This document shows positions 1 to 14,058 of a stretch of 14,058 nt of DNA, in pieces. Positions within the stretch are counted from its first letter, which is position 1; every line of letters begins with the position of its first letter. The position numbers and the translations under genes are program-made. A model generated the notes under the pieces. It did no database searches. It saw only the letters and a list, made by a program, of their open reading frames with translations, and had not been told where the DNA came from. The stretch lies in the NCBI GenBank assembly GCA_016839445.1, contig JAEOUG010000163.1:1-14058 (forward strand), given 5' to 3'. This DNA is from Candidatus Thorarchaeota archaeon (GTDB lineage Archaea; Asgardarchaeota; Thorarchaeia; Thorarchaeales; Thorarchaeaceae).

Positions 1-1
1 A

Positions 2-928
2 GGCTTCAGTGAATACCATCCTGAACTGGCATACGAGGAGTGGATAATTGACACATCTGCTGACGAGGAGAGAGCAGAGATTCGACCAGAGAAGAAACCC
101 ATGGGGCACCAAGCCTTCTTTGTTGTGGACCGAAGAACTGGGAGTGCCGTGTACAGCTATTACTACGACGAGAAGTCCTCCCTTCTTGAGGTGGCGCCAA
201 ACATTGTGGCAGCGATTTCTTCCTTCAAGATAGACCAGACCACGCCTACGGAGACCTCAGTCTTCCGAACCGGTGACCTCAGCTATATCACAATAGAGCG
301 GGACAGCTACGTCTTCACCCTAGTGACTGGACGACATGGTGGCGTGGAAGCCCTCCGCGAACGCTTCTCCTTTCTCCCTGATCTGTTCAAGGACGAGGTT
401 CCCGAGCCGACCGAGGATCCGACGGATCTGTTCAGGTCGCCAGCCTTCACTCTGAAGCTGTTGGCGACACTGCCACCTGAGGAGTTGGGGGGAAGAGTGG
501 CTCCGGTGCAGAAACGCACTCTGATATGGGAGCGGTTCGAGCACGAGCAAGTCCGAGATTTCTTGGAGGCAGTGTGGACCCGCTTGGACGGGAATCTCAC
601 CATGTCAAGACTGGCCCCCGGAAAGGGGCCTGAGATCATCTTGGGCGCGATCCATCTGCTCCATAGACTAGGCGCAATCGAATTCAAGCTCAGGCTATCG
701 CCCGCGGATGTGCCGGTTCTGATAGACCGTCCGAGCAAGGAGGTTCTTGCGCTCTATGAGGATCTTGAGAAGATCCTTGAGTATGTTGATGGAGATCTCT
801 CCATTGAGAGCATTGCGAAGGCCCTGGATCTTAGCCCGAGCGTACTGATTCCTGTGTTTGGGGAATTGGACAGAAGAAGGATTATCAGGATTCGCGATGA
901 CGGCAGTCCACACACGCAACCTTCATAG
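2..928 (+). CDS. 5'-truncated longin + tandem winged-helix protein (NPRL2/NPRL3-like module), paralog of the C-terminal half of 997..2949
   Basis: The frame is open from nt 2 (GFSEYHPELAYEEWIIDTSADEERAEIRPEKKP-MGHQ...), so ATG 101 is probably internal. Longin pattern: AFFVVDRRTGSAVY, helix NIVAAISSF, hairpin SYITIERDSYVFTLVT. Two WH units: LDGNLTMSRL..ILGAIHLLHRLGAIEF and VDGDLSIESIAKALDLSPSVLIPVFGELDRRRII. Stop TAG at 926-928. Confidence 0.75.
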   Translation, partial: GFSEYHPELAYEEWIIDTSADEERAEIRPEKKPMGHQAFFVVDRRTGSAVYSYYYDEKSSLLEVAPNIVAAISSFKIDQTTPTETSVFRTGDLSYITIERDSYVFTLVTGRHGGVEALRERFSFLPDLFKDEVPEPTEDPTDLFRSPAFTLKLLATLPPEELGGRVAPVQKRTLIWERFEHEQVRDFLEAVWTRLDGNLTMSRLAPGKGPEIILGAIHLLHRLGAIEFKLRLSPADVPVLIDRPSKEVLALYEDLEKILEYVDGDLSIESIAKALDLSPSVLIPVFGELDRRRIIRIRDDGSPHTQPS

Positions 929-996
929 TAAGAAGCCAGAAAGATACATAACGACACGCAATTGGCACAACCCACTGAAAGGAGTAGAAGTCGAGA

Positions 997-2949
997 ATGA
1001 TCCACAACGTGCTGTTGATTGAGAAGCAGAACGGTAACGTAGTGGTGAGAACCAGGTTCTGGAAAATTGACTTCAAGGAGGAGGATGTCAAGGATTTCCT
1101 GAGGGGTTACTTGGACCTTCAGAACACAGCCGGCCTCGCCCCGGACACTCCTGTGTTCGTGGCTGAGAAGCACAAGGTCTTCCATGCTGAGGTTGACGGC
1201 GAGATGCTTCTCATGTTCGTCACAGACGGCAGGGATGAAGACCGAGTCATCCAATACAAGGTGCGCGAGGGCGCATCCAGGGTCTCTACTGCACTGCGCG
1301 GCAACAGCATTGGATACATTCGGGACAACTTGGATGACATTCTTGGAGAGCTGATATTCACTCGCTTCAAGGTCTCGTTTGTGGGGTCGGGCGGTGTCGG
1401 AAAGTCAACGCTCCTCCGACTCCTGTTCGGCAAAGAGCCTGCTCCTGGCGGGTACGTTCCTACAATCAACGTTGCCGTCGACTCCTCTGAGACCATTCAG
1501 TTCGGCACTTTCCTCGTGACTGTCTGGGACTTCGCAGGTCAGGCTGTGTTTCAGGACCTTTGGGCCTTCTATTTCTCAGGGACTGATGTCATCTTTCTGA
1601 TCACTGACTCAAGCTTCAGGAATGTTATGCAGACCAAGTCGCTTCTCAGGACAATCCGCAAGGAAGCGCCTGCTGTGCCGCTCTTCATCATAGCAAACAA
1701 GCAGGACTTGCCTGAGTCAATGAAGGCTGAGAAAATCAAACGACTTCTCGGCGCTCCAACCTTCCAGATGATAGCCACTGACAAGTCACGCCGAGAAGAA
1801 TTCATTAGACTGATGCTTGACGTTGCCGCGAAGACCGTAGGTGTTCAGCTACCTGACCTTCCGATATCAGAGATGATCACGGTACGAAGAGGAACCGAAG
1901 AACTGGAGGCCAGCTTCGACAAGGCGCACTTGACGAAGTCACAGGAGGCAGGCTTCGAAACAGTGCCGTACGAGGAAATCCCAGAAGATACAGGAGTTGA
2001 GATACGGCCAAAGCAGGGCGGTGGAACGACCGGTGTAGCTTCCACAGAGAACCTTGTTCAGAAGGAAGCCTCATCACAACAAGTGCAGGTCATTCGCAAG
2101 ACACCGGAGCTTTCGAAGATTCTCCATCTCATGCTGATCGTGCACAAGGACGGACTGCCAGAGGTGGCCTATCATCTCTCCTATGGCGAGGACACAATTG
2201 ACAAGAACTCCGTGGCTTCTCTCATCTCGGCTCTTGACAGCTTCGGAGGTATTGATGCAGAATCGCCCGAAGGACCAGCAACCGATGCTCTTGAGACCAT
2301 TGAGCACGAGGGCAACTTGGTGATGGTAGAGAAGACCAATCACTTTGTCTTGGCGCTTATTGTCACGAATGATAGCGAAGAAGAAAGTCAGAGGAGGACA
2401 TTGAACTCCCTGCTTGTCGACCTTGAGCAACGCTATCAGAACATCTGGGAGAACTGGGATGGTGAGGTATCTATCTTTGAGTCATCCATCTGGGATGTGC
2501 GGGAGAAGGTCCCCCTACGACCGGTGAGTTTCGACTATCTTCTACGGGCTCGGGAAGCTGGGCGTCCGCTTCCCTTCAACAGCAGAGAGTTCGGAAAGGT
2601 CGTTGTCGAGGTGCAGTCCGCCATCGAGAACAACGACACAGTTGGAGGACTCGTGCGAAGTCTTGACATCCCCAGAGAGACCATCTTGGGCTGTCTACAG
2701 ATTCTCAATCGCTTTGGCTGGGTTGACTTCAACGTGGAGATTGGACCCGAGAGCCACCTTCGGAAGTCAGGAGTCGTCGATGAGGACACTCAGAAGGCAT
2801 ATGGAGACGTCGTCGTGCGGTTCGTCGATCTCTGTGATGGCTCATTGCCTCTTCAAGATGTGGTGAAGAAGCTCAACGTGAGTCTGCCCGCAATGCGCTT
2901 CGTGGCCACAAAGCTCGTTCTAGATGGAGTCCTTGAGGTCGTCGTCTAA
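997..2949 (+). CDS. Multidomain Arf-like small GTPase: longin - GTPase - acidic linker - longin - WH - WH
   Basis: 650 aa. G1 GSGGVGKST (aa130-138), G2 YVPTI, G3 WDFAGQ (aa177-182), Arf-like switch II FQDLWAFYF, G4 NKQD (aa234-237), degenerate G5 IAT. N-terminal longin-like start IHNVLLIEKQNG. Second longin at about aa374-505 (LMLIVHKDGLP, SLISALDSF, WDGEVSIFE). C-terminal WH pair. AAGGAG SD-like site at about 979-984. Confidence 0.88.
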   Translation: MIHNVLLIEKQNGNVVVRTRFWKIDFKEEDVKDFLRGYLDLQNTAGLAPDTPVFVAEKHKVFHAEVDGEMLLMFVTDGRDEDRVIQYKVREGASRVSTALRGNSIGYIRDNLDDILGELIFTRFKVSFVGSGGVGKSTLLRLLFGKEPAPGGYVPTINVAVDSSETIQFGTFLVTVWDFAGQAVFQDLWAFYFSGTDVIFLITDSSFRNVMQTKSLLRTIRKEAPAVPLFIIANKQDLPESMKAEKIKRLLGAPTFQMIATDKSRREEFIRLMLDVAAKTVGVQLPDLPISEMITVRRGTEELEASFDKAHLTKSQEAGFETVPYEEIPEDTGVEIRPKQGGGTTGVASTENLVQKEASSQQVQVIRKTPELSKILHLMLIVHKDGLPEVAYHLSYGEDTIDKNSVASLISALDSFGGIDAESPEGPATDALETIEHEGNLVMVEKTNHFVLALIVTNDSEEESQRRTLNSLLVDLEQRYQNIWENWDGEVSIFESSIWDVREKVPLRPVSFDYLLRAREAGRPLPFNSREFGKVVVEVQSAIENNDTVGGLVRSLDIPRETILGCLQILNRFGWVDFNVEIGPESHLRKSGVVDEDTQKAYGDVVVRFVDLCDGSLPLQDVVKKLNVSLPAMRFVATKLVLDGVLEVVV

Positions 2950-5078
2950 GTCTTGACGATAATCCTTTCCTTGTACTCCGGGATGTTCAGGCCGCGTACA
3001 CTTGCGGTATAAGGCGTGTGCACCATGTATCGCCTTCCCTTGCAGGACTTGGCGAATTGCTCAAGATTGCTGGAGGATGAGTGGGCGCTGAGCCGTGCGA
3101 GCTCGACCTTGCACTCATGTTTCTCATATCCATGAAGGAGGTTCCATCCTGCGGTCCGAGGCGCCAGGTATCCGCAGAGTATCACTGCCGCCTTTGGGTT
3201 GCTTCTCTGCTCATTGAAGTGATGCCTCGCCAGCCCTCCTGACATCATTCCGCCGCCCGCAACCAGAACGTCATCCTCCGACAGATGCACCTTGTTCTTC
3301 TTCATGCTCTGCCAGCTTCCCTTCACTCCAACGAACTTGGTGACCCTCTCTGCTAGGCCAGTAACCCACACATTCCTGTTCTTCGTGATCCCCAGGTCTT
3401 CAAGCATCATGAGTATCTCTTGACTGCGGCCCACTGCGAAGCTGGGAATTATGACGGGTCCGTGTTTCGCAATTGTTGAGCTAATCTGCTCTGCAACCCT
3501 TGTACGGTCAAAGTCCTCTCGACCCCAGTATGTACCATCGAAGATGACATAGTCGGAATCAGTTGGGAGATTCGCGCCAGAGAACAGGATAGATTTGTCC
3601 ATGTTGAAGTCGCCCGTGTACATTATCTTGGTGCCTTCAACGTCGACCTCGTACACCGCACTTCCCGGTATATGGCACGCGTCAATTGGCGTCACTACTA
3701 TTCCAGGGCTCACCTCACTGCTTTCGCCATATTCTAGTTGAACATGGCTCCTCGTGACTTTCTCAATGTTCCTCGCGTTGTACCGCGAAATAAGATCCAG
3801 CTTGTCATACTTGCGGGGAGCGAACGGGGTTCCCACCTTTAGAGCATCTTCAAGGAGCATCTTCGCAATTCCAGCGGTCGGCCCGACAGAGCACCACTTC
3901 CCTTCATAGTCCTCAAAGAGAACAGGGAGCCCTCCTAGGTGGTCCAGATGTCCATGAGTGACCAAGACTGTATCGACCATCTCGAGCTCGGGGCACCACT
4001 CAGGTATCCGATGGTTTGCTACCGAGAGGCCGAAGTCCATCAGAATGCCACCAGTGTCGGTCTTGATCAGGATTCCACTGCGTCCTATCCTCGGGCCACC
4101 GAGGAAGATGATCTCTATCTTCTTGATCTTCGATGAGTAGGCTACTGATGGTAGGAGCCCCACTCTCAGCTTCTGCGGAATGAGTTCGAAAATGACAGGG
4201 TCAATCGCTTCGCCTGGAGGAGGCTTCGGGAGTTCCTGTAGCCTGACCTGTAGCACTTCACCGTCGTGGCTTTGGAATCTCTCCCTCTCGAACACCTGTT
4301 TCACAGATTCGATTGCATCTGGAACAGGGAGGCTTGTGTCCAAAGATTGCTGGGCCTCACGATAAGCAGCATCTCTGGCAATCCCGAGAGTGTCCCGGAG
4401 TAGTACATCAGGGCCCCACTCCTTTAGGTTCTCGTATACATCTAGGAAGGGTCTTCCTGCAACGGCCTCGCTCAGGTACTGCGGATGCCGAATGAGTGCA
4501 TCTGCAAGGCGATATCTCTCCTGTGTCAAGACCTCACTTAGATCAATACCGAGTTCCCGCGCAGGGTCCGAGAAGGAGATTGGACTGAACAACGGGGCGC
4601 CAAGATACGTGATCCAGTACCGTATCTCTTTCATGATATCCTCTGGTTTCTTATGTCTGCAGGACGCAATCACTATCAGAGCACGTCTAAGCCAATCCTC
4701 AATGTCATTCTGTGTACGGATGTATCTCAAGGAGTACCTGTACAGGAATCTGAAGTCTTCCTCGTTGAAAAGGTCCAGCAAGAATCCGTAAAGACACAAC
4801 GTCATGACTTCGATGATGTCCTCTTGTGCAGGATCTTCTATGTCATCTCTGAAGGTCTGCATCAGCTTCTCATGACACTGAACCCCCTTCACTAGTGATT
4901 GCGTATCGAGAGTCCGGGCTACACTCAACTCGTATGCCATGAGCTCAACATTCTCGCCGAACAGGCCCTGGCCAGCAAGGCTCTTGCCTTTGGTTGCGTC
5001 TTGGATGGCTGACTCTGCATTCTTGAAGTGCCTCGCAACAATCTTACTTGAGGATGCAGGATAGCTGGTCTTGCTCAT
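2946..5078 (-). CDS. MBL-fold beta-CASP family ribonuclease (CPSF73/aCPSF-like) with a long N-terminal extension
   Basis: Motifs FLGG..IGRS, MDFG, THGHLDHLGG (HxHxDH), CHIPGS, YTGDF, IPSFAVGRSQE, GMMSGG, LSAH, VH. ATG 5078 is preceded by SD-like GTGAT. Alternative GTG start at 5087. Confidence 0.88.
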   Translation of the reverse strand: MSKTSYPASSSKIVARHFKNAESAIQDATKGKSLAGQGLFGENVELMAYELSVARTLDTQSLVKGVQCHEKLMQTFRDDIEDPAQEDIIEVMTLCLYGFLLDLFNEEDFRFLYRYSLRYIRTQNDIEDWLRRALIVIASCRHKKPEDIMKEIRYWITYLGAPLFSPISFSDPARELGIDLSEVLTQERYRLADALIRHPQYLSEAVAGRPFLDVYENLKEWGPDVLLRDTLGIARDAAYREAQQSLDTSLPVPDAIESVKQVFERERFQSHDGEVLQVRLQELPKPPPGEAIDPVIFELIPQKLRVGLLPSVAYSSKIKKIEIIFLGGPRIGRSGILIKTDTGGILMDFGLSVANHRIPEWCPELEMVDTVLVTHGHLDHLGGLPVLFEDYEGKWCSVGPTAGIAKMLLEDALKVGTPFAPRKYDKLDLISRYNARNIEKVTRSHVQLEYGESSEVSPGIVVTPIDACHIPGSAVYEVDVEGTKIMYTGDFNMDKSILFSGANLPTDSDYVIFDGTYWGREDFDRTRVAEQISSTIAKHGPVIIPSFAVGRSQEILMMLEDLGITKNRNVWVTGLAERVTKFVGVKGSWQSMKKNKVHLSEDDVLVAGGGMMSGGLARHHFNEQRSNPKAAVILCGYLAPRTAGWNLLHGYEKHECKVELARLSAHSSSSNLEQFAKSCKGRRYMVHTPYTASVRGLNIPEYKERIIVKT

Positions 5079-5215
5079 GTCAATCACTAGGCCCTAGGCG
5101 TGTCTGTTTCTCAGCAACGAGGTCTATTATCTCCTTCTGGCTGAAACATGCATCACTTAAATGGTGCTAGGATTCGTGACAGGAAGAAGTCATTTGCCGG
5201 TTAACGTCCGGTTAA

Positions 5216-6217
5216 ATGCGCTGGGAACTCAGTTCGCGTGGGGTGCAACCACTGGCCGCAAGCTGCGAAGAACTCCGAGAGAGAATACTCGAGCTAAAGA
5301 AGAAGCGAAAGGCGCTGATTCTTGCTCACAACTATCAGACCTTGGACATTCAGGAGATAGCTGATTTCGTTGGTGATTCGCTTCAGCTGGCAAGGAAGTC
5401 CGCAGAGAGCGAAGGATACGAAATGGTTGTCTTCGCTGGAGTAAGATTCATGGCTGAGATGGCAGCCGTTCTGTCTCCTGACGTCCCTGTCTACATACCG
5501 GACCCGGGGGCGCTCTGCCCTCTTGCTGCATATCTCACTGGAGAGAAGGTCGCCGCCAAGAAAGAGGAGTACCCCGATGCACCAGTTGTTGTGTACGTAA
5601 ACACCACAGCTGATGCCAAGTCCAAGACCGACTATATCTGCACCTCAGGTAGCGCCATAGAGATCGTCAAGTCGATTGGTGCTGAGCGGGTTCTCTTCGG
5701 TCCTGATGCTAACCTCGCTGACTATGTACGCGAACACACGGACGTTGAGATCATCGACCTGGATGAGCGCGGGCATTGCTATGTCCATGACAAGTTCGAC
5801 GTGGAGATGATACTTGAGCTCAAGAAGAAGTACCCCGATGCCATCGCCATAGCTCATCCCGAGTGTCCAATCGAGGTGCAGCACGCGGCGGACGTCGTTG
5901 GGTCCACAGGGATGATGGCGAACTTCGTGGCACAGTCAGATGCCAAGGTCTTTCTCATAGCTACCGAGATGGGAATGGTTGAACAGCTTCAGAAGGCTCA
6001 TCCTGACAAGAAGATTCTCCCCGTCTATGAGGGGGCTGTGTGTAGACAAATGAAGAAGCACACACTCGAGAAGATACTACACGTCCTTGAAGAGATGCCT
6101 GAAGAGAATCTCGTGACAGTTCCTGAGGAGCACGTGCCCCACATCCGGCAGGTCCTAGAAGAGATGAATAAAGTGAAGGGTCAGGGTCCTGCCAAGGCCG
6201 TTTCAGCGAGAACCTAG
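5216..6217 (+). CDS. nadA: Quinolinate synthase A ([4Fe-4S])
   Basis: LAHNYQ, GDSLQLA, GVRFMAE, YVNT, CTS and AHPEC motifs. Three cluster-ligand Cys (ALCPLA, GHCYVH, AVCRQMK). The true start may be in-frame GTG 5243, because ATG 5216 overlaps a TATA-like TTAAAT. Confidence 0.96.
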   Translation: MRWELSSRGVQPLAASCEELRERILELKKKRKALILAHNYQTLDIQEIADFVGDSLQLARKSAESEGYEMVVFAGVRFMAEMAAVLSPDVPVYIPDPGALCPLAAYLTGEKVAAKKEEYPDAPVVVYVNTTADAKSKTDYICTSGSAIEIVKSIGAERVLFGPDANLADYVREHTDVEIIDLDERGHCYVHDKFDVEMILELKKKYPDAIAIAHPECPIEVQHAADVVGSTGMMANFVAQSDAKVFLIATEMGMVEQLQKAHPDKKILPVYEGAVCRQMKKHTLEKILHVLEEMPEENLVTVPEEHVPHIRQVLEEMNKVKGQGPAKAVSART

Positions 6218-6873
6218 TCATGGGCGAGACTCACAAGACTCAGGAGCGCCGACAGGGAGTCAATAACGGCGCCCTGATGATTCTGACGCCTGAAGTCACT
6301 CTCTGTAAACATGCCTGTGAGGGCGATGAATCTGCAGAAGCCCTCCGCCCTTTTCTGATCCTTCAGTGAGTCTCCGACGAATATCATGTCAGTGAATGGA
6401 ATGTCGAACTCCCGGTGAATGTGATTGAAATGGTCCGCCCCCTTCTCGAATCCCGGTCGATATCCGACAATTGCCTTGAACATGCCAATGATTCTTCTTC
6501 TGCGGAAGTACTCCTCTATTGTAGGTTGGAAGGTGGAGGATGAGACGAAGACCTCGATTCCTTTGTCATTCAACTGCTCAACAACGGCGACAGTGTCGGA
6601 GAACAGCTCCTGGTCGAATATCCTCTCTATCTTGAGTTGCTCGAACTCCTCTATAGCCTCCTCGTTTCGAGGATCGCCAGGGAAGTTGCTCTTGATTTGG
6701 TGTTCGTACGGCAGTCCGGTTGTAGACCTGTATCGCTGAGTTGCATCTTCCCTGCTGACTCCGTAGTGTTTCATCATGGTGGCTACACCAATCTCCTCTA
6801 GGAACGGCATACTATCAGCAAGGGTCCCATCGAAGTCGAACACTATTGCCTTGCAGTGTATTTCAGGGGTCAT
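6214..6873 (-). CDS. HAD-superfamily hydrolase (phosphoglycolate phosphatase/Gph-like)
   Basis: Motif I FDFDGTLADS, motif II VSSST, motif III Lys (GFEKG), motif IV FVGDS..D. Start reassigned to ATG 6873 (MTPEIH), which has a GGTGA SD just upstream. The ORF-track extension to 6984 looks non-coding. Confidence 0.9.
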   Translation of the reverse strand: MTPEIHCKAIVFDFDGTLADSMPFLEEIGVATMMKHYGVSREDATQRYRSTTGLPYEHQIKSNFPGDPRNEEAIEEFEQLKIERIFDQELFSDTVAVVEQLNDKGIEVFVSSSTFQPTIEEYFRRRRIIGMFKAIVGYRPGFEKGADHFNHIHREFDIPFTDMIFVGDSLKDQKRAEGFCRFIALTGMFTESDFRRQNHQGAVIDSLSALLSLVSLAHD

Positions 6874-6913
6874 CTGTCGGTCACCAAGAGGAATCTTTCT
6901 GGGTTGAGGCCTT

Positions 6914-6920
6914 CTTATAG
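6914..6920 (-). promoter_or_regulatory. Putative TATA box for the HAD gene
   Basis: CTATAAG on the minus strand about 41 nt upstream of ATG 6873. The spacing leaves a short leader containing the GGTGA SD. Confidence 0.45.
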
Positions 6921-7154
6921 TCCTCGATACGTCGGTTGCTCGTCCACGAGATCCTTCTGGGAGTGTTCGGACCTGGCAGCACACTTAGGTGGTTACTCAC
7001 ATGTCCACACTCTTCAGTGAGATCCGTCCGCTCTTCCACTTTAGCTTTGCCGATGTGCTGTCTTCCGGTTGTCCTCCCAGCCCCTTCCCGGAGAAAGCAA
7101 TCACAATCCTTTTTGGGCTCAACTCGTTAGCGGAGTGTCAAGGAGTACAAGGCA

Positions 7155-7721
7155 ATGACTTCTGAGGATGCTGGTAGCGAGAAGACTGGTACAGAACCAA
7201 TTGACATTGGGTCACTCTTCAAGGGCACTGCGACGATCACATTGGTCGCCGAGATAGTCTCGGCAATCATGCTTCTGGGGTCTGGAGTGGCTTTCATTGT
7301 TAGCCGAGCTGGAATCTTGGAGATACTCTCAACCGACGTACTCATACTCCTGCTAGTGCCTGCTGCCATGCTTGCCCTCTTCATCTTTCTAGGAGCCATA
7401 AGCTTCTTTGTCCGCGTTAACAGGAGAATCGCAGGATTCTTCATCGGATCTGACATCGGTTCTGTTGATCTCAAGAAGCCCCGCGTGAAGATGGTAGTAT
7501 TCATCTATGGCCTCGCGGTAGGCCTCATCCTCATATTCGGCATGTACGGGTACTGGCTTGTCTACAAGTACTACTTCGCGCCGCTTGCAGCGACCTCCCT
7601 TAGTTTCTTGGGCATCTCTCTTTCCCTAGGCATCTTCCTGATGGCACTACTCGTGCAGATGGTTGTGGCGGCTCTCGGCAGAACCGCAACCGGAATCATA
7701 AGAGCCGTTCTACAGGAATAG
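7155..7721 (+). CDS. Hypothetical integral membrane protein (4 TM)
   Basis: 188 aa with four long hydrophobic segments arranged as two hairpins separated by a basic loop. AAGGAG SD at about 7140-7145. Confidence 0.8.
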   Translation: MTSEDAGSEKTGTEPIDIGSLFKGTATITLVAEIVSAIMLLGSGVAFIVSRAGILEILSTDVLILLLVPAAMLALFIFLGAISFFVRVNRRIAGFFIGSDIGSVDLKKPRVKMVVFIYGLAVGLILIFGMYGYWLVYKYYFAPLAATSLSFLGISLSLGIFLMALLVQMVVAALGRTATGIIRAVLQE

Positions 7722-7784
7722 TCAGCTGAATAGCTCAGATGGAATTAAAAGGAGTCCATGTCTGGCTGACTTCGGTGCAACGGA

Positions 7785-8987
7785 ATGGAGTCAGAGGCCG
7801 TCAGCGTCACTAATCCTGAACAGGCTGGGAAGAAGCTGCACATGTGGCAGCTTTCGTACATCATAGGATTCCTGATTGTAGTTCCAGTCCTACTGCTGGA
7901 ATTCCTCGGCTTCCATCTTCCCGAATCGATTCTCCCTTATACTGAGCTAGTTGGGGGAATCCTCCTGATTGCTGGGGCATGTGAGGCATTTGTTCTCTCG
8001 GTCGAGGGGATAGCTCACAACATGCACCTGACCGACTATGTGTCTGGTATCTACGCCAGCCTCGCTAGTACCATTCCCGAGCTCTCCCTTCTTACGTTCC
8101 TCCTGCTCAGCGGCCAGTACGAGATGGCATGGATCCTCGCACTTGCCACCATCTTCATGAACTCACTAGTCTTTGCTGTCTACACTCTAATACTTCCCAA
8201 GGATGAACATGGCGAGTTCAGATTACCCGATGCAATTCATTGGGTGGGTTCAGACCTGCTTAGCATGGGGGCTGTCATCTCCTTGTCTGTGGGCCTCTCC
8301 ATGGTGCTTGTTCACATGTTCAATCCTCCGGAGGGTGGAACCTTCGCACAGGCCCTAGACAGTGGCGAGTTGATAGTCTTCGGCATGTGCCTCGTGGTAG
8401 TGTTCATTGCGTACCTCTACAGAATAACGAAGTACTACGGCCGATGCGATCCCTCCGCCGAGGACCCGTATCTCTCCTGTGAGATAACGCACGATGCCAT
8501 GAGCCGCAAGAAAGTTGTGACATACGTCCTCTTGGCCTCTCTGGGTGCTCTGCTGGGTGGCGAAGCCCTATCCTCCTTCGCTCACTTCGCTATTGATACC
8601 GCAGGTCTCACCATCATTCAGGCTGCTTTGCTCCTTGTCATCTTTGGAGGGACCCCTGAGTACATCATTGTGGCCAGCAGTCATCGGAAAAATGAGATTG
8701 AGATAGCGCTATCTAATGCCTTCGGCGGCATAGTGCAGGTCTTCTTCGTTGTGTTCGGCTACACGCTCCTAGCCTCGGGAATCATCGGGTTCGTCTTCAG
8801 TGGAGGACTGAACCTAATCCCCATAGATGTATTCTCAGTGGTTCTGCTCCTGTTCGCCTTTCCAACGTTGTTCATTCTGAGAGTCATGATCACGGATGAT
8901 GCAAAGGTCAATGCTCTGGAGTCAATTGCGATGATAGCAGTCTTCGTAATGATGCTATACATCCTTCTCGTCTATGGCGGGTATTAG
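7785..8987 (+). CDS. CaCA-superfamily cation/Ca2+ exchanger (CAX/YrbG-like)
   Basis: About 11 TM segments in two homologous halves with a central hydrophilic loop. Alpha-1 repeat ASLASTIPEL...ATIFMNSL. Alpha-2 repeat FGGTPEY...SNAFGGIVQ. Confidence 0.85.
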   Translation: MESEAVSVTNPEQAGKKLHMWQLSYIIGFLIVVPVLLLEFLGFHLPESILPYTELVGGILLIAGACEAFVLSVEGIAHNMHLTDYVSGIYASLASTIPELSLLTFLLLSGQYEMAWILALATIFMNSLVFAVYTLILPKDEHGEFRLPDAIHWVGSDLLSMGAVISLSVGLSMVLVHMFNPPEGGTFAQALDSGELIVFGMCLVVVFIAYLYRITKYYGRCDPSAEDPYLSCEITHDAMSRKKVVTYVLLASLGALLGGEALSSFAHFAIDTAGLTIIQAALLLVIFGGTPEYIIVASSHRKNEIEIALSNAFGGIVQVFFVVFGYTLLASGIIGFVFSGGLNLIPIDVFSVVLLLFAFPTLFILRVMITDDAKVNALESIAMIAVFVMMLYILLVYGGY

Positions 8988-8999
8988 AGAAAGAGATTG

Positions 9000-9026
9000 G
9001 AGGGACCAGATGATTACTGATCCCTC
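9000..9026 (-). terminator. Hairpin between convergent genes, putative terminator
   Basis: On the minus strand GAGGGATCAG-TAATCAT-CTGGTCCCTC forms a 10-bp stem with one G-U pair, followed by a pyrimidine tract (CAATCTCTTTCTCT). It lies 6 nt after the stop of the 9033..11930 gene. Confidence 0.55.
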
Positions 9027-9032
9027 AGGTGT

Positions 9033-11930
9033 CTATCCAAATGTACTGTGATCAAAGCCGATGACTGCTGGTGCCGGAGTGATTGCTGGTTCCTTCTCAC
9101 GATACATGACAAAGAAGGCTAAGACGAAGAGAAGACCACCAATGGCGTAGAGTCCCATACGAATGCTGGTCCAGAGTATCTGATCATTGTTTCTGCCGTC
9201 AGTCTCACGTTGCTCGAGTTCAGTACGTACGCTACGCCCCTGAATCACAACGTTGTAGCTACCGGGCTCCAGTGTCAGGGTGCCGCTTGCATACTCACGT
9301 TGCTGGTAGATCGACGTGGACTCAATGGTCAGGACGATTCTGGCCTCTTCTATACCCTGCTTGTAGAATATCACGTTTATGACTTCGGTCTCGAAGACCG
9401 TCATGTAGTAAGATACCTGTACCCAGACAGTCTCTGTGAAGTACGGGCTATCGCTTACGACAAAGCCGAAGCTTGCAGAGTTCGTGGTCATTTCATTGGC
9501 GCCAGGATTAACAGGGCCTTCCATGTTCGCAGGAGCAAGAAGTAGGACGCACAATAGGAACACCACTGCCGGAATGAAGAACCTGAGTCTCCTGATCTTC
9601 TTCATCCCGTCCCGTCTCGTTGCGAACTCCACCCCAACTAGCGTCGCAATAGTCGCGCCACCAGCAATTGCTAGGGTGAATATGGTTGCCTCCATGGCCT
9701 GCCCCGTGTCCATTGTGAACTCTCCGGGATCCAGTCCTCGGGCAACCTCCCATGGGTCGCTCAAACCGTCCTTGTCCGAGTCAACCAGTGTTGGGTCTGA
9801 ACCATAGATGACAATCTCTTCGTTGTCTCCAAGGGTGTCTCCGTCCGTGTCTCCGTTGAGAGGGTCACAGCCATAGATTTCAACTTCGGCATAGTCTCCG
9901 AGGCCGTCTCCATCCGAGTCCGCGTTATTGGCGTCTGTACCGAGTTCGAACTCACGCAGGTTGATGAGCGAGTCCATATCAGCATCGCCTCCGCTATCAT
10001 CGGAGAGGGGGTCGAGACCGTTCGCGTCTTCATATCCGTCAGGCATGAGATCTAGGTCCGTGTCATAGTCCAATGGGTCTGTGCCCAGAGAGCCCTCCTC
10101 CGCATCATCTAGCCAATCCATATCCGAGTCGCTCATGAAGAGACAGGTGCCCAGAGTGTCATACTCCATACTGTCGCTGAGAGTGTCTCCGTCTGAGTCC
10201 GTGCTATATGGGTCGCCCCCTTCCATGTACTCCTCGATGTTGGTGAGGGTATCGCCGTCAGGATTCCCTGTGGAGTCATCAAAGAGCGGGTTTAGTCCAT
10301 ACGCCTCCTCAAACCCGTCAAACATCGAGTCTCCATCTGAGTCGGGGTTGCTGCTGGAAGTCCCTGCCGCTGACTCATCTGCGTTAGATAGACCATCGCC
10401 GTCTAGGTCGTCAGGCGTACCGAGCTTGACGAGGAAGCCATCTCGGCTTCCGCTGAGGCCAGAGAATAGGGTCCCGTATGTATCCCACGTGTTGCTCATG
10501 GTGTATCCAACAGCGTATGAGTAGCCATCACTATCGACAGTCACATCATATGCTGAATCGTCGTTCTCTCCTCCGATGAAGGTGGCATATCTCACCTGCT
10601 GTCCATCGGCGGTCAGGCTGAAGGCATGGGCATCAACATTTCCTTGGTGAACCAAGTCTGCCGCATTTACCAGAGGATAGTCGTAGGAATAGGTATAGCC
10701 GACGACGACGATGTTTCCTTCGGAGTCGATTGCCATGGCGTTGGGACGGTCTGTGTCAGATCCGCCGAAGTAGGTTGAATAGAGCACTCTTGACCCAGTC
10801 GAATCAAGCCTCATGATGAAGATGTCAGTGTCCGACCGTGTGTCGTCTAGCGAGTTGACAAGAGGCATTTCGTCTCTGTTTGTTGAGCCTGTGATGACAA
10901 TGTCGCCGCTTGGTGTGAGGCCTACATCCACCACCCAATGGAAGTAGCCCAAGTCTAGCATCTTGGTGAAGATGAGCTCATCTCCACGTGGTCCGAGCTT
11001 GCATAGGAAGCCGTAGAATTCCTGGTCCTCATTGCCGAAGAGGATGTCACTCATGGGCCAATCAATTGCCTCGGTCCGCCCCACAACGAAGACTGACCCA
11101 TCATCTCCTACTGCAATGCCACTTGGGTAGTCGTTTGCACTGAACCCGTAATGGTCCTCGCTTCCTCCTAGGTATGTTGAGTACACCAAGTCGCCCAGGG
11201 AGGTGAACTTGGCTATGACCACATCACTGTATCCGTCGAGCACCCAGTCCCAAGCGTTCTCAAGAGGCAGGTCGGTTGAGCCAGTAATGCCTGCAATGTA
11301 GATGTTACCACGGTCATCCAGAGTCGCATAACTCATCGAGTCATAGTCTGACCCTCCGAAATAGGTCGAGAAGACCAATCTGTCACCCGTCGCCGCTAGT
11401 TTCAGCAAGAATCCATCAACGTTCTCCCAAGGGTCTGGGTTGCTATTGAAGGTCGAATCATACGCGCGGACTGTGGGTAGATCGCTTGAGTCTGTATCTC
11501 CACAGATTATCATATTCCCATAGGCGTCGACCTCTATAGACATTGGATAATCTGTTTCTGACCCGCCGATTATTGTCGTGAATAAGACCTCTTTTCCGTC
11601 TGGAGTCAACTTCATCACGAAGATGTCGTATGGTTCTCCAGAACCTGGGCCAATAGAGTAGGTGACCGGAAGATCCGTCGAGTTTGTGAAACCTGTTAGG
11701 TAGATGAACCCAAAGTCATCCACGGCTACATCAGTCACTGCATCCCTGCTGTTACCTCCGACGTACGAGGCAAGTGCAAACGCACCTCCGCCCTGTGCAG
11801 TGACTGCACGAGCCTGCGCCGTAGGCAGGTCGATTTCATCAAGGGAAGTCACGTCTTGTCCTACCATCGGACATGCAGGAAGGACAAGCACAAGAAAGAT
11901 AGGAATGGCTAATGCCCACATTCTCCTCAT
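9033..11930 (-). CDS. Secreted, membrane-anchored surface protein: SBBP 7-blade beta-propeller + TSP3-like Ca-binding repeats + C-terminal TM module
   Basis: N-terminal signal peptide MRRMWALAIPIFLVLVLPA. Seven STYxGG..D....VD..G.IY..G.T.S.D.P repeats and ten DxDxD.L.D..E repeats. Three C-terminal hydrophobic helices. ATG at 11930 (the ORF track starts at TTG 11933). Confidence 0.88.
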   Translation of the reverse strand: MRRMWALAIPIFLVLVLPACPMVGQDVTSLDEIDLPTAQARAVTAQGGGAFALASYVGGNSRDAVTDVAVDDFGFIYLTGFTNSTDLPVTYSIGPGSGEPYDIFVMKLTPDGKEVLFTTIIGGSETDYPMSIEVDAYGNMIICGDTDSSDLPTVRAYDSTFNSNPDPWENVDGFLLKLAATGDRLVFSTYFGGSDYDSMSYATLDDRGNIYIAGITGSTDLPLENAWDWVLDGYSDVVIAKFTSLGDLVYSTYLGGSEDHYGFSANDYPSGIAVGDDGSVFVVGRTEAIDWPMSDILFGNEDQEFYGFLCKLGPRGDELIFTKMLDLGYFHWVVDVGLTPSGDIVITGSTNRDEMPLVNSLDDTRSDTDIFIMRLDSTGSRVLYSTYFGGSDTDRPNAMAIDSEGNIVVVGYTYSYDYPLVNAADLVHQGNVDAHAFSLTADGQQVRYATFIGGENDDSAYDVTVDSDGYSYAVGYTMSNTWDTYGTLFSGLSGSRDGFLVKLGTPDDLDGDGLSNADESAAGTSSSNPDSDGDSMFDGFEEAYGLNPLFDDSTGNPDGDTLTNIEEYMEGGDPYSTDSDGDTLSDSMEYDTLGTCLFMSDSDMDWLDDAEEGSLGTDPLDYDTDLDLMPDGYEDANGLDPLSDDSGGDADMDSLINLREFELGTDANNADSDGDGLGDYAEVEIYGCDPLNGDTDGDTLGDNEEIVIYGSDPTLVDSDKDGLSDPWEVARGLDPGEFTMDTGQAMEATIFTLAIAGGATIATLVGVEFATRRDGMKKIRRLRFFIPAVVFLLCVLLLAPANMEGPVNPGANEMTTNSASFGFVVSDSPYFTETVWVQVSYYMTVFETEVINVIFYKQGIEEARIVLTIESTSIYQQREYASGTLTLEPGSYNVVIQGRSVRTELEQRETDGRNNDQILWTSIRMGLYAIGGLLFVLAFFVMYREKEPAITPAPAVIGFDHSTFG
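9720..10412 (-). repeat. Ten thrombospondin type-3-like (DxDxDG) Ca-binding protein repeats
   Basis: DLDGDGLSNADE, DSDGDSMFDGFE, NPDGDTLTNIEE, DSDGDTLSDSME, DSDMDWLDDAEE, DTDLDLMPDGYE, DADMDSLINLRE, DSDGDGLGDYAE, DTDGDTLGDNEE, DSDKDGLSDPWE, mostly followed by G.DP-like turns. Confidence 0.82.
10422..11775 (-). repeat. Seven SBBP beta-propeller protein repeats
   Basis: Blades begin ASYVGG, FTTIIGG, FSTYFGG, YSTYLGG, FTKMLD (degenerate), YSTYFGG and YATFIGG, each followed by a G.T.S.D.P-like segment and a FxxKL-like strand. Confidence 0.8.
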
Positions 11931-12008
11931 CAAGTGCCCCTAGCATACCGCATCTGGTACGTCCTACTTAAGCCTTCTCAGAACACGACTCAATTGCTGC
12001 TTCTTGGT

Positions 12009-12245
12009 CTAGTAGTGTCCGTACTCGCCAATGATCTGGATCTTGATGATGCACGTGAGGGTGACGTATTCGTCCGCCTCACCAGTATCCCCATGGCTTA
12101 TGCCAACAATGTCAGTGCCTACGAACGCTATCCTCCCTTCAGCGACAATCATCATCCCTGGCCCAAAGAACCTGAATCTCTCACCAGATTTCGCCGCATC
12201 TAGAAGGACGCTTCTTAGGTCTGCATCCTTCTCGAATTTCGACAT
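12009..12245 (-). CDS. Small hypothetical protein, possible Sm/Hfq-like (SH3-type barrel) fold
   Basis: 78 aa, co-oriented with its neighbours. TATA-like CTTAT about 26 nt upstream and GAGGT directly before the ATG. N-terminal helix followed by five short beta strands, including EGRIAFVG and YVTLTCIIKI. Confidence 0.7.
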   Translation of the reverse strand: MSKFEKDADLRSVLLDAAKSGERFRFFGPGMMIVAEGRIAFVGTDIVGISHGDTGEADEYVTLTCIIKIQIIGEYGHY

Positions 12246-12369
12246 ACCTCATGGATAGCAGGTCGTTGGAGATAAGCCTTGGCACTCGTCTGCGAAGGCG
12301 TCCTTCTCACGGCCGCTTCTGGAGCAAAGGAGCAGGAACATCTCTCCACGAGATGCCCCTTTCCTGTTC

Positions 12370-13557
12370 CTAGATGATGCCGACCTGCTTTCCGACCCTC
12401 TCGTATGCTGCTAGAGCAATGTCGAGTTGGTCCTTCGTCAGACCAGAGTTCATCATGTTCCTGATTCTTGCCTTGTCACGAGCAACCATTGGGAACACAA
12501 TAGGCAGAGCGAGAATACCCTCTTTGAACAGCCCGTCGCTGAGTTCGACGGCCTTTGAGCTCTCACCGCACATGGCTGGAATGATGGGAGTCTGGCTGTT
12601 GCCGGTATCAAAGCCCATCTGCTGAAGGCCCTTGACGAAGTACTCGCGATTCTCCCAGAGAGTGCGCACATGCTCTTCTTCGGTCTCAAGCACATCGATA
12701 GCTGCGATGCACGCTGCGGCAGTAGCTGGTGGGTGAGAAGCACTGAGCAGCCAAGATCTGCTCTTGTTCAGGGCGTAGTTCACCATATCACGGCTACCTG
12801 AGACATGGCCTCCCATGACGCCAAAGGCCTTGGAGAATGTGCCCATCTCGAAGTGAACGTCCTTGTGGGTGAGGTCGAAGTGTGACACAATACCACGGCC
12901 ACCTTTTCCGAGAACGGCCTCTCCGTGGGCATCGTCCACGTAGATCATGGCGCCGTGCTCTTTCCCGGCTTTGACGATACCATCCAGTGGTGCTATATCG
13001 CCGTCCATCGAGAAGACGCCGTCAGTGATAATGAGTATCCTGCGGGGATTCTCTTTCTCTGCGTCTTTCAGAACCTCCGCCAGGTGCGCTGTGTCATTGT
13101 GATTGTACACGAACCGCTTTGCCTTGGTCAGGCGTACGCCATCGATAATGCTGCCGTGGTTCAGTTCGTCAGAGACAACGACATCCTCCTTGTCAACAAG
13201 CTGAGGGATCAGACCCTCATTGGTTGTGAAGCCTGCGCTGTAGGTGAGGGAAGCCTCTGCGCCCTTGAACTGTGCCAGGCGCCTCTCGAGCTCCAAGTGC
13301 AGATCCATTGTGCCTGCAATAGCCCGTACTGATCCAGAACCTACGCCGTGGGTCTTCACTGCGTTGAGTGCAGCGTCCCTGAGCTTCGGATGGTTGCTCA
13401 AGTTGAGGTAGTTGTTCGAGCAAAGCATGATGACCTCCTTGCCATCGATCTTCGCCTTAGGGGTGCTTGGCCCCTGTAGTTCACGAATCTTCCAGTCTAG
13501 GTTTGCATCGACCAGTTTCTGATATTCCTCTTTCATCCAGACAGTAGGATCTCGCAT
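12370..13557 (-). CDS. kbl: Glycine C-acetyltransferase (2-amino-3-ketobutyrate CoA ligase), alpha-oxoamine synthase family, PLP-dependent
   Basis: CSNNYL, GSGSVR.IAGT, SDELNHGSIIDG, DGVFSMDGD, VDDAHG, PLP-lysine GTFSKAFG, FPMV..ARIR. ATG 13557 is preceded by GGTGA (ORF-track GTG 13566 is part of the SD). BioF-type activity is not excluded. Confidence 0.85.
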   Translation of the reverse strand: MRDPTVWMKEEYQKLVDANLDWKIRELQGPSTPKAKIDGKEVIMLCSNNYLNLSNHPKLRDAALNAVKTHGVGSGSVRAIAGTMDLHLELERRLAQFKGAEASLTYSAGFTTNEGLIPQLVDKEDVVVSDELNHGSIIDGVRLTKAKRFVYNHNDTAHLAEVLKDAEKENPRRILIITDGVFSMDGDIAPLDGIVKAGKEHGAMIYVDDAHGEAVLGKGGRGIVSHFDLTHKDVHFEMGTFSKAFGVMGGHVSGSRDMVNYALNKSRSWLLSASHPPATAAACIAAIDVLETEEEHVRTLWENREYFVKGLQQMGFDTGNSQTPIIPAMCGESSKAVELSDGLFKEGILALPIVFPMVARDKARIRNMMNSGLTKDQLDIALAAYERVGKQVGII

Positions 13558-13629
13558 TGTACTCACCCATTGTGGTTGTCGAAGTTTGCCCTGAGTCGGG
13601 CGTTTCTACGCGGGGCCGGCAAATTGGAC

Positions 13630-13636
13630 TATATAT
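13630..13636 (-). promoter_or_regulatory. Putative TATA box for kbl
   Basis: ATATATA in an otherwise GC-rich intergenic region, about 73 nt upstream of ATG 13557. Confidence 0.4.
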
Positions 13637-13745
13637 GGCCTTCGCTGTGGGAATGACAGGGTGTGAACCGATCCGCTTTCTTCAAGATACTAGGCGCCGC
13701 GAACCTCGCATTTACCGGTATGGTTCTTCAGGAGGCCGTCCATGA

Positions 13746-14057
13746 CTACCTGTGCTTGATGAAAGTCCCCGAACGATATTCCTTGAATGCAACATCCAGT
13801 TCATCTTGTGTGTTCATGACGATTGGCCCGTACCAGGCAATCGGTGCTCCAATTGGGGCTCCCGATATCAGCAGGAAGCGACCGCCTTGGTCACTCCTGA
13901 CTAGGATGCTTTCTCCGTCAGAGAAGACAGCAAGCGTTCCTGCGTCTACTCGCCTACGCTTGTTCCCAAAGAGGACAGATCCCTCGAAGACGAAGGCGAA
14001 AGCGGTATGTCCACTTGGTATGGTGTGGGTCATCTCAGTCCCCTTCTCGAGTTCGAT
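13746..14057 (-). CDS. Pirin family protein, C-terminal cupin domain (5'-truncated)
   Basis: Frame open to the window edge (IELEKGTEMTH...). Pirin C-terminal signature RFLLISGAPI..PIAWYGPIVMNTQDEL..AF.EY..G. Stop TAG at 13746-13748. Confidence 0.9.
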   Translation of the reverse strand: MELEKGTEMTHTIPSGHTAFAFVFEGSVLFGNKRRRVDAGTLAVFSDGESILVRSDQGGRFLLISGAPIGAPIAWYGPIVMNTQDELDVAFKEYRSGTFIKHR

Positions 14058-14058
14058 G

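Follow-up and report, generated by a model that had tools for sequence, protein, structure and literature searches.

The locus described here raises the question of which GTPase an Asgard longin module acts on, and with which partner. The window, that is the whole stretch of DNA analysed (14,058 nucleotides; positions 1 to 14,058 of the forward strand of contig JAEOUG010000163.1, assembly GCA_016839445.1, Candidatus Thorarchaeota archaeon), contains an intact open reading frame (ORF) at 997..2949 (+) with its stop codon at 2947-2949, and the 650-aa product of this ORF, labelled P0001, carries an Arf-like GTPase between two longin domains. P0001 was shown to be a natural fusion of a longin-GTPase unit (residues 1-299) and an NPRL2/NPRL3-like unit (residues 371-650), connected by a flexible linker. 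The gene immediately upstream was found to encode a full-length paralog, truncated in the window by the contig start, that is a pseudoGTPase, a term used because the P-loop, G3 and NKxD are missing. We regard it as about as likely as not that P0001 supplies the nucleotide-binding part of a GTPase/pseudoGTPase switch that is built from two genes and conserved in Thorarchaeota, and in which the heterodimer of the NPRL-like halves would regulate the tethered GTPase.

The host genome has a completeness of 89.8% and a contamination of 6.45%, and the 73 related loci used for comparison were from Thorarchaeota/Promethearchaeota-type metagenome-assembled genomes (MAGs). Wherever the closest proteins bore a taxon name, it was Thorarchaeota or Promethearchaeota. 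Motif counts given below refer to 120 orthologs, column identities and winged-helix charges to 31 aligned orthologs, and the family hidden Markov model (HMM) to 37 members. Structures were modelled with AlphaFold2 (AF2), and model quality is given as pLDDT and pTM. The following features were assigned around the GTPase gene:

2..928 (+): last 308 aa of the upstream paralog, comprising its longin and both winged helices; the contig start truncates the gene (loci comparison, profiles)
981..984 (+): Shine-Dalgarno-like GGAG, 12 nt 5' of the ATG, within a 68-nt spacer (read from the sequence)
997..2949 (+): 650-aa gene for an Arf-like GTPase between two longins, with a linker ahead of the second longin and two winged helices at the end (ORF, Pfam, ortholog alignment, AF2)
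997..1356 (+): longin 1, residues 1-120 (AF2 element order, pLDDT ~90; hhalign to longin 2)
1357..1851 (+): Arf-like GTPase, residues 121-285 (Pfam Arf, VIA, column identity)
1852..1893 (+): 14 conserved residues that close the GTPase unit, residues 286-299, PDLPISEMITVRRG (common to stand-alone longin-GTPase paralogs)
1894..2106 (+): disordered, hypervariable, net-acidic linker, residues 300-370, 71 aa (AF2, column identity, composition)
1951..1971 (+): conserved linker motif GFETVPY, residues 319-325 (pattern count in orthologs)
2107..2511 (+): longin 2, residues 371-505, net charge -18 (AF2, VIA, charge)
2512..2772 (+): winged helix 1, residues 506-592, ~515-590 in the model (AF2; FAM91A1 match)
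2773..2946 (+): winged helix 2, residues 593-650, ~596-648 in the model (profile match to human NPRL2 residues 171-236)

The longin-GTPase unit and the linker

The full-length AF2 model (48 sequences; mean pLDDT 82.6, pTM 0.48) showed a five-domain layout and places the domains in the order longin, Arf-like GTPase, disordered linker, longin and two winged helices. Together with the Pfam Arf match, this bears out the longin-ArfGTPase-longin-winged helix-winged helix architecture that an original prediction, made from the sequence without database searches, had put forward. The Arf family (PF00025) was the highest scoring of eight Pfam families, with 66.5 bits over residues 122-255 compared to a cut-off of 22.3; Gtr1_RagA also passed its cut-off (27.6 bits compared to 22), with Arf, Roc and Ras all scoring higher. 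In VIA structure comparisons the GTPase region showed Z-scores of 18.7 with Arl13B and Arf6, 16.9 with SR-beta and 16.8 with a RagA-like GTPase from Lokiarchaeota. The G1 to G4 motifs were found to be intact, as predicted: G1 is GSGGVGKS (residues 130-137; nt 1384-1407), switch I contains T156, G3 is WDFAGQ (residues 177-182; nt 1525-1542) and G4 is NKQD (residues 234-237; nt 1696-1707), the last two being what we take to be Arf-type motifs. G1 was conserved in 119 of the 120 orthologs and both G3 and G4 in all 120, and the domain as a whole showed a mean column identity of 0.96 and a net charge of +5. Since the catalytic Gln182 is present in G3, a GTPase-activating protein (GAP) that supplies an arginine is plausible for this GTPase, judged from the motif.

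In the Arf family an N-terminal amphipathic helix couples GTP binding to membrane insertion. P0001 was modelled without a helix of this type and with a 120-aa longin in its place. Residues 1-120 were arranged as strand-strand-helix-strand-strand-strand-helix-helix, which is the longin order, at a pLDDT of ~90, in line with the expectation that the N-terminal 120 aa adopt a longin fold; the final helix continues directly into strand 1 of the GTPase. The profiles of longin 1 and longin 2 aligned in register (hhalign E 3.7e-4, but with a probability of 36%). When the longin 1 profile was compared with PDB sequences, the best match was a designed repeat protein, and the AP-3 mu longin was aligned end to end at a non-significant E of 0.34. 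ESM Atlas returned only unnamed bacterial clusters for residues 1-120 (0.75-0.76, below the lead level of 0.9). The assignment of longin 1 is a probable one, based on model topology, the profile match and the end-to-end AP-3 mu alignment, fold searches with the whole 650-aa model listing GTPase chains only.

The linker showed pLDDT values below 50 over residues 300-367 and a mean column identity of 0.42 among orthologs. It had been described earlier as an acidic, Gly/Gln-rich segment of ~85 aa; the acidic character stands (13 D+E compared to 7 K+R), and the length was corrected to 71 aa and the composition to six Gly and six Gln. Within it, the strict pattern G[FY]E.[VA]P[YFQ] was found in 90 of 120 orthologs and a variant in most of the remaining 30.

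An NPRL2/NPRL3-like module in the C-terminal half

Residues 371-650 modelled alone gave a compact unit (pLDDT 87.9, pTM 0.81), in which residues 375-504 show the longin element order at a pLDDT of ~88. In a Foldseek search of PDB, ranks 1-15 of the listing were all Nprl2/Nprl3 (Npr2/Npr3) chains of GATOR1/SEACIT (E 6.5e-6 to 3.5e-3), aligned over 287-471 columns that cover all three domains. Independently of structure, the 37-member HMM searched against 177,635 PDB sequences gave five matches, of which the first two were human NPRL2 (E 0.0022), the last winged helix being aligned with NPRL2 residues 171-236. Relatives gave sub-threshold Pfam matches to NPR2 (E 0.012) and HTH_NPRL3 (E 0.018), and in the comparison with NPR2 and NPR3 one from a different Asgard family (genome G012) reached 14.8 bits compared to a cut-off of 27.5. 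NPRL2 and NPRL3 have been described as a longin at the N-terminus with, behind it, repeats of the winged HTH (helix-turn-helix) domain (Levine et al., 2013; PMC3747258), and we consider residues 371-650, on the basis of the model and the profiles, to be an NPRL2/3-like module that is a remote relative and not a member by the Pfam models.

Searches with VIA were dominated by the longin domain. Ranks 1-24 for the C-terminal half were all longin domains (Z 9.9-11.7), including a Lokiarchaeota longin, VAMP7, AP sigma and mu, Sec22 and Lst4 as well as CPLANE, C9orf72-SMCR8, TRAPP and SRX. A single GATOR1 chain was also listed (8fw5_C; Z 9.8, 239 aligned residues, rmsd 9.6), and the N-terminal tandem winged helices of FAM91A1 matched model residues 137-280 (Z 9.4). 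The best 50 rows of a rigid-body structure search were likewise all single longin-type domains (Z 10.0-12.4).

The DUF742 family was also met in these searches. The NPRL-like protein of G012 scored 26.6 bits on Pfam DUF742 compared to a cut-off of 27, and the paralog C-terminus gave a sub-threshold E of 0.057; P0001 itself gave no DUF742 signal. These profile scores hint that the Nprl2/3 winged helix may be related to this bacterial family.

A conserved pseudoGTPase paralog upstream

The homologous upstream gene was delimited in 58 loci and, where complete, encodes ~560-590 aa. Compared by hhalign, the P0001 and paralog families aligned end to end on both sides over 544 columns (probability 97.8%, E 1.2e-12), with a 14-residue gap exactly at the P-loop; the paralog is without DxxG and has VPGSD in place of NKQD. 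The relation was also recovered by HMMER, in two pieces, one per half. The N-terminal half cut off at the window start is supplied by another contig of the same bin (C87), which overlaps positions 1-774 at 95% nucleotide identity and whose paralog half is also without GxxxxGK. Inside the paralog gene this overlap corresponds to 97.7% protein identity over 257 aa. The divergence suggests the presence of two strains in the bin, which would explain the assembly break at the window start. The original prediction had noted a neighbouring paralog; it had missed that this neighbour is paralogous over its full length and has a degenerate GTPase, and that the C-terminal half of P0001 is NPRL2/3-like. 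ESM Atlas also stayed under the lead level of 0.9 for the N-terminal half of the paralog, where the clusters at 0.80 were unnamed and those at 0.75-0.78 were archaeal Arf.

The paralog adjoins the GTPase gene upstream in 54 of 62 evaluable Thorarchaeota loci, lies 1.9-3.6 kb away in four and was not seen in the other four. The loci with an insert of this size between the two genes are L043, L044, L048 and L054. Among the five genomes without adjacency, the paralog was found elsewhere in two. It has been retained at ~35-70% identity across the class. The 68-nt spacer and its GGAG fit co-transcription of the two genes, as far as sequence can indicate; a part of the stretch was contained in 20 runs from seven studies, with no RNA run listed among them. 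The possibility of a swap with the neighbouring paralog, one half of the earlier inference on the longins, is the better supported half. A complex prediction for P0001 residues 371-650 with paralog residues 30-308 gave a median of 0.35, one unrelated control gave 0.49, and the result is counted neither way.

Occurrence of the two units in Asgard genomes

The host genome contains 26 matches to P0001, mostly small GTPase domains. At least four other genes in it encode the longin-GTPase unit (of the type of residues 1-299) by itself, as proteins of 286-298 aa.

Several further loci contain one of the units. Contig C182 (L004) carries on its minus strand tandem longin-GTPase genes at 957-1850 (298 aa) and 1-861 (287 aa), both with intact P-loops. 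A 605-aa paralog is encoded on the minus strand of contig C72 (L002; 691-2505), with a longin-GTPase part 40% identical over residues 1-312 and an extremely acidic, Glu/Pro-rich tail of ~300 aa at its end. Contig C18 (L008) carries tandem stand-alone longin-winged helix-winged helix proteins of 289 and 275 aa (1474-2343 and 2346-3173); in the first hairpin one member has G-E-P and the other G-E-S, an asymmetry that, by analogy, recalls the GP-bearing Nprl2 compared with Nprl3.

The profile of the C-terminal half matched 94 of 151 genomes of the phylum. Among the matches listed, fused frames of ~610-680 aa with an adjoining paralog of ~570 aa were restricted to the family of the window (26/26) and one sister family (1/1), and adjacent pairs of stand-alone NPRL-like proteins were present in at least 23 genomes. 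The other families had stand-alone proteins of 285-313 aa, or a longin alone at the C-terminus of long non-GTPase proteins. The domain-architecture search proposed earlier recovered, among the matches listed, the full fusion in these two families, and in the others stand-alone or longin-only forms. Three frames of 670-790 aa with a longin-only match were checked as candidate fusions and rejected; the longin was C-terminal in all three and the GTPase half present in none. In a representative library of 1.84 billion proteins, a full-length match to P0001 was found in only 2 of 150 clusters listed.

In G012 the same order was found in separate genes, with an ORF of 180 aa lying between the 276-aa longin-GTPase and the 303-aa NPRL-like protein; each consecutive pair of these three overlaps. 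The three belong to a five-gene cluster on the minus strand of locus L088 (6591-10358) with overlapping or nearly abutting neighbours, in the order 351 aa, 276-aa longin-GTPase, 180-aa acidic ORF, 303-aa NPRL-like protein and 157 aa. The 351-aa protein has a longin-like start and an HTH-like end; it was considered as an NPRL-like relative, and an hhalign probability of 0.6% showed no relation.

Proposed mechanism and alternatives

In the two-gene switch proposed above, P0001 and the paralog would join by their NPRL-like halves into a pseudo-symmetric heterodimer, the longin of one half pairing with that of the other and the winged-helix lobes doing likewise, in a way similar to Nprl2-Nprl3 and to the C-terminal roadblock domains of the Rag GTPases. 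For Npr2 and Npr3, the two N-lobes have been reported to pair with each other, and so have the two C-lobes (Tafur et al., 2022; PMC9646525). Like-with-like pairing between two chains is proposed because the longin 1-GTPase and longin 2-winged helix-winged helix units each occur alone, often in tandem. The Foldseek alignment of RagA and Gtr1 with the GTPase and longin 2, the conserved linkage of the two genes and the split arrangement in G012 were also counted in favour of the proposal. The longin platform would engage the tethered basic GTPase domain and set its GTP hydrolysis or nucleotide state, and the opposite charges of the GTPase and longin 2 were counted in favour of this contact. The fusion would hold regulator and client at a fixed 1:1 ratio, and the GFExVPY motif of the linker may be a docking peptide, either for a longin (autoinhibition) or for an outside partner. 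We infer dimerisation and GAP activity for the pair. The earlier interpretation is partly supported: its view of the flanking longins as regulators of the GTPase or as partners of the neighbouring paralog is upheld.

Several observations weigh against this proposal. At the level of families, Pfam NPR2 (PF06218), NPR3 (PF03666) and IML1 (PF12257) were unmatched in the 89.8%-complete genome at E up to 10. Pfam also gave nothing on the flanks of P0001 on either side of the GTPase, and nothing usable when each flanking domain was searched alone at E up to 10. The rigid-body similarity to Nprl2/3 is modest (Foldseek TM 0.21-0.36, rmsd 10-18 Å), the low TM being due to a different orientation of the lobes, and no GATOR1 chain was among the best 50 Z-scores of the rigid-body structure search. 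At the level of residues, no catalytic arginine could be placed in the P0001 module. The arginine finger sits in the longin domain in human Nprl2 (Arg78) and yeast Npr2 (Arg84); Arg466 of P0001 is invariant in 37/37 family rows and is not equated with Nprl2 Arg78. In the P0001 module a GP motif was seen only as G386-x-P388 at the strand 1-strand 2 hairpin of longin 2, where the Gly is nearly invariant and Pro388 is lost in 7/31 orthologs (P0112, P0113, P0115, P0117, P0119, P0121 and P0122); the paralog has the G and not the P at this position. In GAP longins, the loop that precedes strand 2 has been described as bearing the GP motif (Traffic, 2025; PMC12290439). At the level of gene content, no GTPase was found within ~7 kb in five of six stand-alone NPRL-like loci from other families, the five representing two families. 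Furthermore, the paralog was not found in three of the five non-adjacent genomes, one of them a record titled chromosome, and because of this the partner may not be obligatory.

Four other explanations were weighed. In the first, which formed the other half of the earlier inference, longin 1 and longin 2 of a single chain would pair across the linker and act in cis without the paralog. The presence of two longins and a 71-aa flexible linker within one chain is in line with such a platform, and so is a closed-looking genome record that has the gene and no detectable paralog. The two halves were not confidently packed against each other, as seen from the pTM of the full-length model (0.48) compared to that of the C-terminal half alone (0.81). 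Longin 1 is rigidly fused to the GTPase in a unit that exists by itself in the host genome, and the C-terminal unit also exists alone, in tandem pairs. Furthermore, in Npr2-Npr3 and the other known platforms of longin or roadblock type, the domains that pair are equivalent ones from two chains. The intramolecular pairing was thus found to be unsupported, and we consider it unlikely.

An explanation that we hold to be equally unlikely is a homo-oligomeric, Rag-like GTPase, in which P0001 self-dimerises via longin 2 and the winged-helix lobes and the paralog has a separate role. RagA and Gtr1, which consist of a GTPase and a C-terminal roadblock, aligned by Foldseek over 367-394 columns with the GTPase and longin 2 of P0001. 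A Lokiarchaeota RagA-like GTPase has been crystallised as a homotetramer (8yl2, according to its record), and homodimers have been predicted for Rag-like architectures of MK-D1 (Tran et al., 2024; PMC10933270). Self-dimerisation would leave the tight conservation of the gene pair (54/62 adjacent, with a GGAG in the spacer) and the maintenance of a full-length dead paralog throughout the class as points against it.

Somewhat less probable again is a regulatory action of the NPRL-like half in trans on other small GTPases, for which the attached GTPase would serve as a timer or localisation switch. Other candidate clients are at hand among the 26 matches in the host genome, stand-alone NPRL-like pairs occur without a neighbouring GTPase, and eukaryotic Nprl2/3 act in trans on RagA (Tafur et al., 2022; PMC9646525). 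The fusion and the split operon of the same order in G012 indicate the attached longin-GTPase as the partner; regulation in trans is compatible with the two-gene switch.

A GTP-controlled regulator whose winged helices bind DNA so that the GTPase gates transcription was rejected as very improbable on charge and relatives: in archaea no DNA-binding fold is commoner than the winged helix, and weak profile matches to HTH families and the CodY wHTH were obtained (E 0.4), but winged helix 1 is neutral (median +1, -3 to +4) and winged helix 2 acidic (median -3) in the 31 orthologs, the last 145 aa of the paralog have a median net charge of -2, and the closest whole-module relatives, Nprl2/3, use their winged helices for protein contacts.

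Comparison with known systems

The closest resemblance of the C-terminal half is to NPRL2-NPRL3 (Npr2-Npr3), the GAP for RagA/Gtr1 in GATOR1/SEACIT, by which Rag GTPases are turned off in the nutrient signalling of eukaryotes. Both have a longin followed by tandem winged helices, the likeness is expressed in the best Foldseek and the best PDB sequence-profile matches, and in both the module is present as a pair of diverged paralogs. In contrast to NPRL2-NPRL3, the P0001 module is fused behind a GTPase, has a different relative domain orientation, is unmatched by Pfam NPR2/NPR3 and has no identified Arg finger; for the third GATOR1 subunit, DEPDC5/Iml1, the host genome gave no Pfam IML1 match either.

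P0001 shares with RagA/B-RagC/D (Gtr1-Gtr2) a GTPase followed by a C-terminal domain of roadblock/longin type, in P0001 a putative dimerisation domain, and the occurrence as two paralogs, which in the Rag GTPases work as a pair; the long Foldseek alignment and the Gtr1_RagA score above cut-off are in agreement with this. It differs from them by its far higher score on Arf, by the additional N-terminal longin, the linker and the two winged helices, by the nature of the domain beyond the 71-aa linker, which is a longin and not a roadblock, and by having one partner without a P-loop.

Among published Asgard proteins, an NPRL2-like family has been reported from most Thor MAGs, together with fusions that involve two-component domains; the preprint reports separately on GTPases of the Rag family to which a longin is fused (Liu et al., bioRxiv 10.1101/2020.10.19.343400). 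The stand-alone pairs and the C-terminal half of P0001 are similar to the NPRL2-like proteins, whereas a GTPase-NPRL2-like fusion and a pseudoGTPase partner are unmentioned in the consulted text of the preprint. Arf-annotated GTPases of MK-D1, structurally between Arf and Rag, are fused to longin or located between longin and roadblock (Tran et al., 2024; PMC10933270). They share with P0001 the fusion of an Arf-like GTPase to a longin and differ in that, as far as the article text describes them, they are without a winged-helix lobe, a long disordered linker and a degenerate paralog partner.

Two further systems place a longin or roadblock on a GTPase. In the SR-alpha SRX/SR-beta pair a longin sits on an Arf-like GTPase (SR-beta Z 16.9 for the GTPase, SRX Z 8.4-10.4 for longin 2), and in MglB-MglA and the bacterial conservon, the latter consisting of roadblock, DUF742 and GTPase, a roadblock sits on an Arf/Ras-like GTPase; the near-cut-off DUF742 score of the G012 relative adds to the likeness. 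Unlike in P0001, the partners in all of these are separate proteins. Furthermore, P0001 is without the NG domain, membrane anchor and signal-recognition context of SRX/SR-beta, and its family differs from the conservon in that the DUF742 match is sub-threshold. A role similar to that of the SRP receptor was considered and dropped, SR-beta and SRX being just two among many comparable fold matches.

Neighbouring genes

Downstream of the GTPase gene, a 713-aa beta-CASP/metallo-beta-lactamase protein is encoded at 2946-5087 (-), with a stop that overlaps the stop of the GTPase gene by 4 nt and an N-terminal extension of ~320 aa without a Pfam match. It resembles aCPSF1 with 177 bits and the type VII Cas14 model with 140 bits, both sub-threshold given cut-offs of 580 and 800, respectively. 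This gene was found adjoining downstream in 57 of 58 Thorarchaeota loci, and since it is convergent it is probably outside the GTPase/paralog unit. A 966-aa protein with an SBBP beta-propeller and bacterial TSP3 repeats, resembling bacterial surface/cohesion lipoproteins, is encoded at 9033-11933 (-). The ORFs 7155-7721 (+; 188 aa) and 13663-14058 (+; 132 aa, open at the 3' end) had no Pfam or NCBIfam match.

Significance

The component parts of P0001 have already been published (Liu et al., 2020 preprint; Tran et al., 2024), and the fusion and the pseudoGTPase partner are apparently undescribed. No description of either was found in the consulted texts on Asgard GATOR1/NPRL and pseudoGTPases; this scope does not extend to the figure and supplements of the preprint by Liu et al. 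or to its Nature version, and a prior depiction there is possible. The consulted text of a 2026 structural-clustering preprint likewise contained no description of a GTPase-NPRL-like fusion or a pseudoGTPase partner.

The pair might be a pre-eukaryotic, single-operon counterpart of Rag-GATOR1, in which the GTPase and an Nprl2/3-type longin GAP are fused and accompanied by a pseudoGTPase twin, although we think this improbable. If it were true, the separate GTPase and GAP heterodimers of eukaryotes would descend from, or parallel, the fission of such a protein, and the roadblock-DUF742-GTPase triad of prokaryotes would be linked with the winged helices of Nprl2/3 by way of the sub-threshold DUF742 signal.

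Matching Asgard GTPases to their regulators has been described as difficult, since GTPase genes seldom share an operon with genes for longins or roadblocks (Tran et al., 2024; PMC10933270), and for the GAP-like Asgard longins the question has been raised whether they are partnered by ArfR or by Rag-type GTPases (Traffic, 2025; PMC12290439). P0001 is a GTPase-regulator pairing that is written into the sequence. The fusion in one Asgard order, the split operon in another family and the conserved dead-GTPase twin make up a defined and expressible system, which allows a test of whether an Nprl2/3-like longin-wHTH module regulated GTPases before eukaryotes. If the module had no effect on its attached GTPase, the customary step from eukaryote-like domains to a eukaryote-like function would stand on weaker ground in this family.

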